Positions 55,901 to 58,900 of a stretch of 64,000 nt of DNA are shown piece after piece. Made by a program: the position numbers. The first letter of the stretch is position 1; every line of letters begins with the position of its first letter. Origin of the DNA: Escherichia coli (GTDB taxonomy: Bacteria > Pseudomonadota > Gammaproteobacteria > Enterobacterales > Enterobacteriaceae); NCBI RefSeq assembly GCF_003018255.1, contig NZ_CP027440.1; one strand, 5' to 3'.

Positions 55901-58900
55901 GGCATCAGGCGCTGCTGCGCGGTGAAATGCCGCAGACCATCGGCGGCGGTATCGGGCAGTCTCGTTTGACCATGCTGCTGCTGCAACTGCCACATATCGG
56001 CCAGGTTCAGTGTGGTGTATGGCCGGCAGCTGTTCGCGAGAGCGTCCCTTCTCTGCTGTAATAATTTATCGCCGCCAGCGTCTGAGCAGGCGGCTTCGCA
56101 TCCCGGTATCAAAGCGCCAGATATGATCGAAAATGCGCATGATGCCGGGTTTGCCATGTGCAGACATCGCCACGGCATGAAAGCGATGCTGATGTACGCG
56201 CTGTAGCTCTTTCACTTTACTCGTCACGTCGTCAGGCAACCGCTGGGCGATAAAATCAGAAATCACCACCGCATCGGCATCAAACCATTCCCTGCTTTGC
56301 AAGCGTTCCATAATGGCGCGAAAACAACTGGCAAGATCGGTGCCGCCACGAAACTGCTGGCTTAAAAAACGGATTGCTTGTTCGATGCCTTGTGGGCCTG
56401 AAAGCTCATAACGGACGATCTCGGTGGAAAATAACATAATATAGCAGCGCCGGTTTTCAGCGAGAGCAATGCGCATCAAGGCCATGCAGAACGCTTTCGC
56501 ACACTGTTCATTAAAGCCGCCCATTGAGCCGGAAGTATCCACACAGACAATAAACGGTCCGCGCGGCTGTTCGTCGTAATCTTTATGTACCACCGGGCGT
56601 TCGATCACTTTTTCACGCCACGACTCACCGTGCAGGCGATAGGTGAGCAACTGTTTTTCCACCAGCCGACGGTAAAACTCATACTCCAGTTCCGTTATCC
56701 CCAGTGTCGCCAGTTCTGGCGGCAGGAGACGTAAAATATCATCGCTTTGTTGCAGACCATCAACCTGCTCAGGAACCGTCGCCGGTTCGCGCACCATGGT
56801 GCGGAAGGTTTCCATCTGCGCATCGTTGCGCGGTATTGATTTGGCTTCCCGTGAACGCCCCAACTGTTCTGCCAGGCGTTTCAGTTCCGGCTGTTCGTTA
56901 AGAAATTCACCGTATTTCACAATCAACTGATAGTCGCCGCGTTTAAGCTGACCGGCGCTCATATCCCACAGACGACCAGCTGCGGTATTGTTATCTGCGA
57001 GAATCGGTTCAAGTTGCCCGCTCAGCGTCATGCGTTCCTGAACTTCACTCAACAGTTGTTCGCGTTCTTCTTCTAATAGCTGCTGATTTAGCGTCGTTGC
57101 TTGCACGATCAGACTTAAACGCCAGCGCTGGAGAAAAAGCGTGTGTAACGCTGAAGTGATCGTACTGTTAGCATCAACCAACTGTCGGGCTTGTTCTGCC
57201 CATGGAGAATTCAGACGATGCAGTAAGTCCAGGATCTGTGGTAGCTGCACAATAAACTGCGGCGTGGAGAGGAGCTGGCTTTGCTGATAGCACATCACCT
57301 CTTCGGTGAGTTCCGGCGGGACTCGGGCATCTTTCAGCCGACTGCGCAGCGCCTCACGCCAGCGGGGAACATCATCAGTGATTGCCGCCTTCAGTCGTGG
57401 GAATTTTTCAAAGAAGACCGCCAGCTGCGGTGAGGCCAGCAGCGCGATGATCATCTCTTCGATCAATCCCTCTTCGCTGACGGCCAGCATCACATTAAGC
57501 GTATCCAGCGTTAGCATTGTTGTGCCTGGCGAATCTGGGCGCCGACATCCTGTAGGCTGGCTTCAATGCGACCTAACCAGTCGCCAGGGATAAACAGACA
57601 TTTTTGCTGTTCGCTGAATAAAGCGTGTTGCTTGCGCCAGTCGCTTTCAAGCTCTTCCAGTTGTTGTTTTATTTCACCTGGCAGACCTTCAGCCGATGAA
57701 CCGGGAAGTGCCAGCGTACTGCCTTGTAAACTTACATCGCGTACAACAAGATGTTGGGCGCTATCCACTTCCAGATTCAATTTCTGGGCAAAGCCGATAC
57801 CGTTCAGTTTGCCGCGAATTTCACCACCTTTACTCAGCCACTGTTCCAGCGCGTTACGCTCAAAGGAGATATGAACCACTTCCATATCATGCAGTTTTAA
57901 CGGTTTTTGCAGCAGCAGAGTCAGAGTGGAAGCAGTAACGTTAACAGGAAGTTGATACTGCTGACGACGGCTGAAAATGCCGCCCAGACGAATTACCGTT
58001 AAGGCTGTTTTATCGCTTTGTTGCTGCTGGAGTTGCAGGTGACGTTGCACAATCGCGCCCAGGCGGGTCAACATTCCTTGCTGTTGCCAGGCATGACCGG
58101 TCATCAATACATCAATTTGTTGTTGTATCAAATTCAGGCTTTGCGCGTCATACCACAGGCAATCTTTCAGCAAAATGAGATCAACCGGGGCAACAGCACT
58201 GCGACCGCTAAAAAAGGCGCTGGCCTGCAATAATCGAATCGCTTTTTTCCAGCGACGATCCGAGACATAAGGCGCATCCGGTAATTTATCCAGTTGCTGG
58301 CGCAGCATAAAAATCAGCTCAAATACATGATCGGGCAGCGTAATTTCACCAATCTCTTTCTGCCAGCGTTCATATTCTTCATCTGTGACCTGCAAGGAGG
58401 CAGGAACCGGATTGTCGTTTTCATCCTGTTGACTGGTCAGCATGGAGCGGAAATTCGCTTTATCCTGCACTTTATCTAACCACAGACGAATCAGCATGCG
58501 GTCATATAACGCTTCCAGACTGCTGTCTGCTTCCGGCAGCTCGTTGGAGGCCGCCACCAGCAGGCGCATCGGGATTTTTTCTACGTGTGCACCGTTGCGG
58601 AACTGGCGCTCGTTAATGGCGGTGAGCAAGGTATTAAGAATTGCCGGGCCCGCTTTCCAGATCTCATCCAGAAAGACGATTTCTGCTTCCGGCAGGTAAC
58701 CGCTGGTTAAACGTTCATAGCGCCCTTCATCTTTTAGCGCCTGAATAGAAAGGGGACCAAAAACCTCTTCCGGCGTGGAGAAGCGAGTCATCAGATATTC
58801 AAACGCGCGGGCATTCTGAAAGGCGAATTTTAAGCGCCGGGCGATCAAACTTTTGGCAATACCTGGCGGGCCAAGGAGGAACACACTTTCACCACTTAAT

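Follow-up and report, generated by a model that had tools for sequence, protein, structure and literature searches.

The genes ravA and viaA of Escherichia coli overlap by seven nucleotides, a real and ordinary arrangement of a well-known type, the short same-strand overlap. In the stretch of E. coli DNA analyzed here (64,000 nucleotides of contig NZ_CP027440.1, hereafter the window), direct reading of the sequence places the shared heptamer ATGCTAA at positions 57511..57517 of the minus strand, with the viaA ATG at 57517..57515 and the ravA TAA at 57513..57511. An earlier note on this DNA had reported the overlap at exactly these coordinates, leaving unstated that both genes are carried by the minus strand. 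We propose that coupling by termination-reinitiation is probably the main route of viaA translation, and we give this reading, which draws on sequence comparisons and published work, a probability of about 0.75.

The junction and its genes

In the 5′ to 3′ direction of the minus strand, the ravA frame reads CGC CAG GCA CAA CAA TGC TAA at the junction and the viaA frame reads ATG CTA ACG CTG GAT; the viaA frame is −1 relative to that of ravA. The pattern ATGNTRA is frequent in the window, with 102 matches where about 69 are expected, so it is the position of the junction between two long, verified coding sequences that counts and not the string itself.

Both gene identities given in the earlier note hold. 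The upstream gene, ravA (57511..59007, minus strand; 498 amino acids plus stop), encodes a MoxR-family AAA+ ATPase. Its product matches the NCBIfam equivalog NF010054 over residues 1-498 of 498 (992.8 bits against a cut-off of 681), and the Pfam domains bpMoxR (PF20030)/AAA_5 (PF07728), AAA_lid_8 (PF17868), LARA_dom (PF20265) and ATPase_RavA_C (PF12592) all score above their cut-offs. The translation also contains GPPGIAKS, the Walker A motif named for RavA (PMC3893208). The downstream gene, viaA (56066..57517, minus strand; 483 amino acids plus stop), encodes the VWA-domain partner of RavA: NF008230 matches residues 1-483 with 878 bits against a cut-off of 500, Pfam VWA_CoxE (PF05762) and VWA_2 (PF13519) place the C-terminal VWA domain at residues 320-457, and a MIDAS-like DTSGS of the DxSxS type is present. 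The annotations of K-12 and of strain A25 name both genes in the same way.

The open reading frames as listed run over 56066..57517 (minus strand, 483 amino acids) and 57511..59031 (minus strand, 506 amino acids from a TTG). The TTG at 59031, eight codons upstream of the ravA ATG (59008..59031), was rejected as a start: alignment to the RavA family model begins with the ATG at 59007, the annotated and real start. The Shine-Dalgarno (SD) sequence of ravA itself, AGGA, lies 12 nt from this ATG, a poor spacing that fits the low expression reported.

Adjacent genes for a MoxR AAA+ protein and a VWA protein that cooperate are also found in NorQ/NorD, CbbQ/CbbO and the magnesium chelatase I/D subunits, as described in PMC9976466, PMC4633670 and PMC9489729. 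Unlike these other MoxR/VWA pairs, RavA has a LARA domain and ViaA a unique helical N-terminal domain (PMC9489729).

The overlap is already present in the reference annotation of K-12 MG1655 (b3746-b3745), where the same genes lie in the same kup-ravA-viaA-asnA synteny. There viaA occupies 3928152..3929603 and ravA 3929597..3931093, which gives an annotated overlap of the same 7 nt with the same ATGCTAA junction; the feature is therefore a known one, as the earlier note had recorded. That note had suggested sequence inspection and comparison with K-12, and both agree with it. Three substitutions separate K-12 from the window over the 161 nt surrounding the junction, none of them in or adjoining the heptamer. 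Strain A25 is annotated with the same 7-nt overlap and an identical heptamer. The window comes from an E. coli other than K-12; over this region it shares about 98.5% identity with K-12 and 99.9% with strains A25 and JNE23-011. Across complete E. coli genomes the locus occurs in 5422 of 5426 at no less than 95% identity and is always annotated as ravA/viaA between asnA and kup. In the window, viaA directly follows ravA on the same strand, and the pair has kup on one side and asnA-asnC-mioC on the other.

The window as a whole is the replication-origin region of an E. coli chromosome and contains, in this order, yidA, gyrB, dnaA, tna, bgl, pst, glmSU, atp, oriC, asnCA, viaA, ravA, kup and rbs; alignment with annotated K-12 (98.5% identity) maps oriC to 53658..53889, between mnmG and mioC. 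Other same-strand overlaps, as found in the window and the syntenic annotation, are recF/dnaN and pstA/pstC (1 nt each), mdtL/yidZ (26 nt) and rnpA/yidD (37 nt). Downstream of the pair studied here, asnA (plus strand, ending at 56061) and viaA (minus strand, ending at 56066) converge with 4 nt (56062..56065) between their stops, as they also do in K-12, so that any transcription terminator of one gene must lie within the other. Farther away, about 5.4 kb (34329..39754) between pstS (33183..34223, minus strand) and glmS (39757..41586, minus strand) is absent from strain A25 and is 100% identical to DNA of E. coli JNE23-011 annotated there as the lpfA/B/C-O113 long polar fimbriae operon. Of 5426 complete E. 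coli genomes, 1963 carry this segment with a coverage of at least 80%; it is a known variable island at this place. Rfam matches at gathering level are STnc410 (43202..43359, plus strand), AsdA, an antisense RNA to the dnaA mRNA (6540..6620, plus strand), and ES036 (1021..1063, plus strand), all of them known enterobacterial RNAs.

Overlap length in other species

We surveyed the junction in 80 Enterobacteriaceae loci, one genome per species, with ViaA identities of 77-99%. The ravA stop and the viaA start overlap in every one of the 80 species, and a gap between them occurs in none. The overlap measures 7 nt in 49 species (ATGCTAA in 26, ATGCTGA in 22 and ATGTTAA in one), 4 nt in 18 (ATGA) and 1 nt in 13 (TAATG). 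The three classes share one frame relationship, with viaA in −1 relative to ravA, and they differ solely in the position of the first ravA-frame stop, which can be any of three successive codons. By genus, E. coli has 7 nt, E. albertii 1 nt, Kluyvera both 7 and 1 nt, and Klebsiella and Raoultella 4 nt; this scatter indicates that the length has changed repeatedly while the overlapping state was retained.

The second codon of viaA is CTA in 26 of the 49 species of the 7-nt class, where it forms the TAA stop of ravA, and CTA is the rarest leucine codon in E. coli. The leucine codon CTC, which cannot form a stop, appears at this position solely where an earlier TAA already ends ravA. In the window, loss of the TAA would let RavA run on to a TGA 21 nt farther along in its frame and would lengthen the overlap to 28 nt. 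This pattern, in counts uncorrected for shared ancestry, suggests selection on the placement of the stop.

Among the 120 matches listed in a search for homologous proteins, all are close Enterobacteriaceae relatives with at least 75% identity. More distant orthologs, eight in number and 31-64% identical, were taken from a representative library and from contig look-ups. In these eight the distances from the ravA stop to the viaA start are +3, −4, −1, +9, +3, +113, +18 and +101 nt. Clear SD sequences (GGAG, GGAGG and AGGTGA) are present in three of the four orthologs with spacers of 9 nt or more, and the fourth (L091, +18 nt) has a weak AGAG only. The ortholog with 64% identity (L085) keeps the same synteny around ravA-viaA. 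In the one with 31% identity (L092, 862..4855), ViaA-like VWA genes stand on either side of ravA: one of 497 amino acids lies upstream, and the second begins 101 nt downstream. The statement in the earlier note that the overlap is conserved is therefore right for the fact of overlapping, which all 80 Enterobacteriaceae species share; it does not extend to the exact length, which may be 7, 4 or 1 nt, or to the whole RavA-ViaA clade, in which gaps reach 113 nt.

Initiation of viaA translation

The existence of the overlap depends on where viaA begins, and comparison of sequences leaves the annotated start well supported. In the window, the viaA frame contains a stop 15 codons upstream of the ATG, with no ATG, GTG or TTG in between, and the ATG is the first start codon of the open reading frame in all 80 Enterobacteriaceae species as well. 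Across these species, codons 2-9 of viaA have a mean entropy of 1.34 bits at the third position versus 0.39 and 0.21 bits at positions 1 and 2, a third-position variation which implies that codons 2-9 are translated in the viaA frame. This codon-periodic variation starts at codon 2, and the N-terminal peptide MLTLDTLN is conserved among the 80 species. Moreover, a similar M-L-x-x-D/x-x-L pattern opens ViaA at the equivalent position in distant orthologs, even at 31% identity.

If the start were misannotated and lay instead at the GTG of codon 9 or the ATG of codon 10 (57493..57488, minus strand), the overlap would be replaced by a gap of about 20 nt. This GTG-ATG pair is in frame, 24-27 nt downstream of the annotated ATG, and we did not find an experimental N-terminus of native ViaA in the accessible RavA/ViaA literature. 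However, the coding periodicity of codons 2-9 and the conserved MLTLDTLN argue against initiation there, the distant orthologs begin at the position equivalent to the annotated one, and several species (L025, L031, L060, L066 and others) have Ile or Leu in place of Met10. In addition, the NF008230 profile aligns from ViaA residue 1, and no SD precedes the GTG-ATG pair. We consequently rejected both codons as the start (57488..57493), and a misannotation is very improbable.

At the annotated start, viaA has a weak SD. The sole SD-like element upstream of viaA is an AGG at −10..−8 (57525..57527, minus strand), within the ravA codons CAG GCA. Pairing of the 20 nt upstream of viaA with the 3′ end of 16S rRNA gives a duplex of −2.5 kcal/mol, rank 50 of 55 in a reference set formed by the 55 annotated genes of the syntenic A25 region (median −5.6 kcal/mol). 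The CAGGC upstream of viaA is kept in most species and at the same time encodes a conserved Gln-Ala of RavA, so the constraints from the SD and from the protein are inseparable. The junction RNA has no stable structure, as a 110-nt fold has a minimum free energy of −29.9 kcal/mol versus a shuffled mean of −33.3 kcal/mol (z +0.96); being no stabler than shuffled sequence, it lends no support to coupling by the unmasking of a structured start. Over the whole window at the gathering threshold, no Rfam family was placed near the junction.

The two genes are reported to be co-transcribed as one operon from a promoter upstream of ravA (PMC3893208, PMC9489729), under sigma-S and Fnr control (PMC3893208, PMC9489729, PMC9973319). 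We judge this promoter to lie in the divergent ravA-kup intergenic region (59008..59229; minus strand for ravA-viaA), since the native promoter cloned by Wong et al. 2014 was a fragment of about 206 bp from just before ravA (PMC3893208); the primer that they used, gaaatgtgtgcttagtcccttg, corresponds to minus-strand positions 59206..59185. We also scanned 55900..59300 for promoter consensus sequences. No sigma-70-like site turned up on the minus strand, the stretch inside ravA included, which is weak evidence for a single promoter, and terminator-like hits within the genes in the same scan were near chance (8 versus 4.0 ± 2.0). The cellular levels reported are about 350 RavA and 90 ViaA molecules per cell (PMC3893208).

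Taken together, the weak viaA SD, the lack of local structure and the lack of an internal promoter consensus make termination-reinitiation the most likely mechanism. In this mechanism, one promoter upstream of ravA would drive transcription of both genes. A ribosome completing RavA would terminate at the UAA, four bases past the viaA AUG and within viaA codons 2-3 (CUA ACG), and would then back up a few bases and reinitiate at that AUG. Because the viaA start has a three-base SD (AGG) and no spacer, we propose that most ViaA is made by ribosomes fresh from termination on ravA, and ViaA output would be tied to that of RavA at a ratio of less than one. In E. coli, coupling by termination-reinitiation is the usual outcome of short overlaps, which are also enriched among genes for interacting proteins (PMC6728339, PMC10666635). 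The coupled pairs studied by Huber et al. 2019/2023 (PMC6728339, PMC10666635) are likewise co-directional, belong to one operon, encode interacting proteins, have a stop and a start separated by no more than a few bases and have the downstream initiation region inside the upstream gene; in four of the five E. coli pairs tested by these authors, an SD inside the upstream gene mattered for reinitiation.

Some observations count against coupling or limit its scope. The dominant overlaps among the pairs of Huber et al., and most of those characterized experimentally, are of 4 and 1 nt (PMC6728339), whereas ravA-viaA overlaps by 7 nt here and by 4 or 1 nt in the same frame in relatives; an overlap of 7 nt would require a longer backward movement of the ribosome. 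The ravA/viaA pair is absent from the pairs tested in that work (PMC6728339), and the RavA/ViaA papers that we searched (PMC3893208, PMC9489729, PMC9973319) mention neither the gene overlap nor a coupling experiment. The spacers of 9-113 nt in distant orthologs indicate that coupling is not intrinsic to the RavA-ViaA pair.

It is conceivable, but unlikely, that viaA is mainly initiated de novo, with 30S subunits recruited by the weak AGG and by the A-rich sequence, and that the overlap is a compact by-product of ViaA codons 2-3. There is precedent in E. coli bioBF, which initiates de novo despite an overlap and a weak SD (PMC6728339). A ΔravA::cat strain not only makes ViaA but overproduces it (PMC3893208), which shows that, in some constructs at least, viaA can be translated when full-length ravA is not, and which favors independent initiation, as do the real spacers and dedicated SDs of distant orthologs. 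The abundance of ATGNTRA in the window would also suit a by-product. Opposing this explanation is the survey itself, in which 80 of 80 species overlap and the length switches repeatedly among 7, 4 and 1 nt but never becomes a gap. The use of a rare CTA to form the TAA, with CTC confined to junctions that have an earlier stop, likewise counts against it, and so does a viaA SD that is among the weakest of the region. It is for these same reasons, namely the weak SD, the conserved overlap and the rare CTA that forms the stop, that the coupling suggested in the earlier note is a reasonable proposal.

A programmed −1 frameshift at the overlap, yielding a RavA-ViaA fusion that would unite AAA+ and VWA modules as in subunit D of magnesium chelatase, can be almost entirely discounted. 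In its favor, viaA is in the −1 frame, which has no stop in the 15 codons before the ATG. Nevertheless, no slippery heptamer of the form X XXY YYZ occurs in the final 45 nt of ravA, no stable downstream structure is predicted, and Western blots show RavA and ViaA as separate proteins (PMC3893208). The single fusion found in databases, P0007, does not look like the product of a frameshift. It comes from one contig of Salmonella enterica serovar Infantis and has 785 amino acids, with RavA from residue 1 to about 318 joined in frame to ViaA from about residue 10 (joint ...AWQQQ-AMLAVSEE...). From its sequence, it seems to have arisen by an internal deletion between two short stretches that resemble each other, or else in assembly, rather than by a frameshift at the overlap.

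With termination-reinitiation as the preferred mechanism, a further and quite speculative possibility is that overlap length is an evolvable dial of the restart rate. Each lineage might then fix its own RavA:ViaA ratio, which is about 4:1 in E. coli, through an overlap of 7, 4 or 1 nt, and CTA might be kept for an efficient UAA at a cost in codon optimality for viaA. We regard this idea as improbable on present grounds.

Implications for the RavA-ViaA system

Beyond correct annotation, the ravA-viaA overlap is of small importance. The cross-species tabulation of 7-, 4- and 1-nt overlaps and the observation on CTA are small additions and not a new kind of feature. The arrangement does call for caution in engineering: deleting ravA or tagging the C-terminus of RavA disturbs the viaA start, and altering viaA codons 2-3 abolishes the ravA stop. 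This caution bears on the aminoglycoside-sensitization phenotypes of RavA-ViaA that are under current study. For the family, the series of 7, 4 and 1 nt across species is a small, tidy example of selection holding a stop and a start together. If overlap length does act as a dial, then the 80-species series would be a natural experiment on reinitiation as a function of distance.
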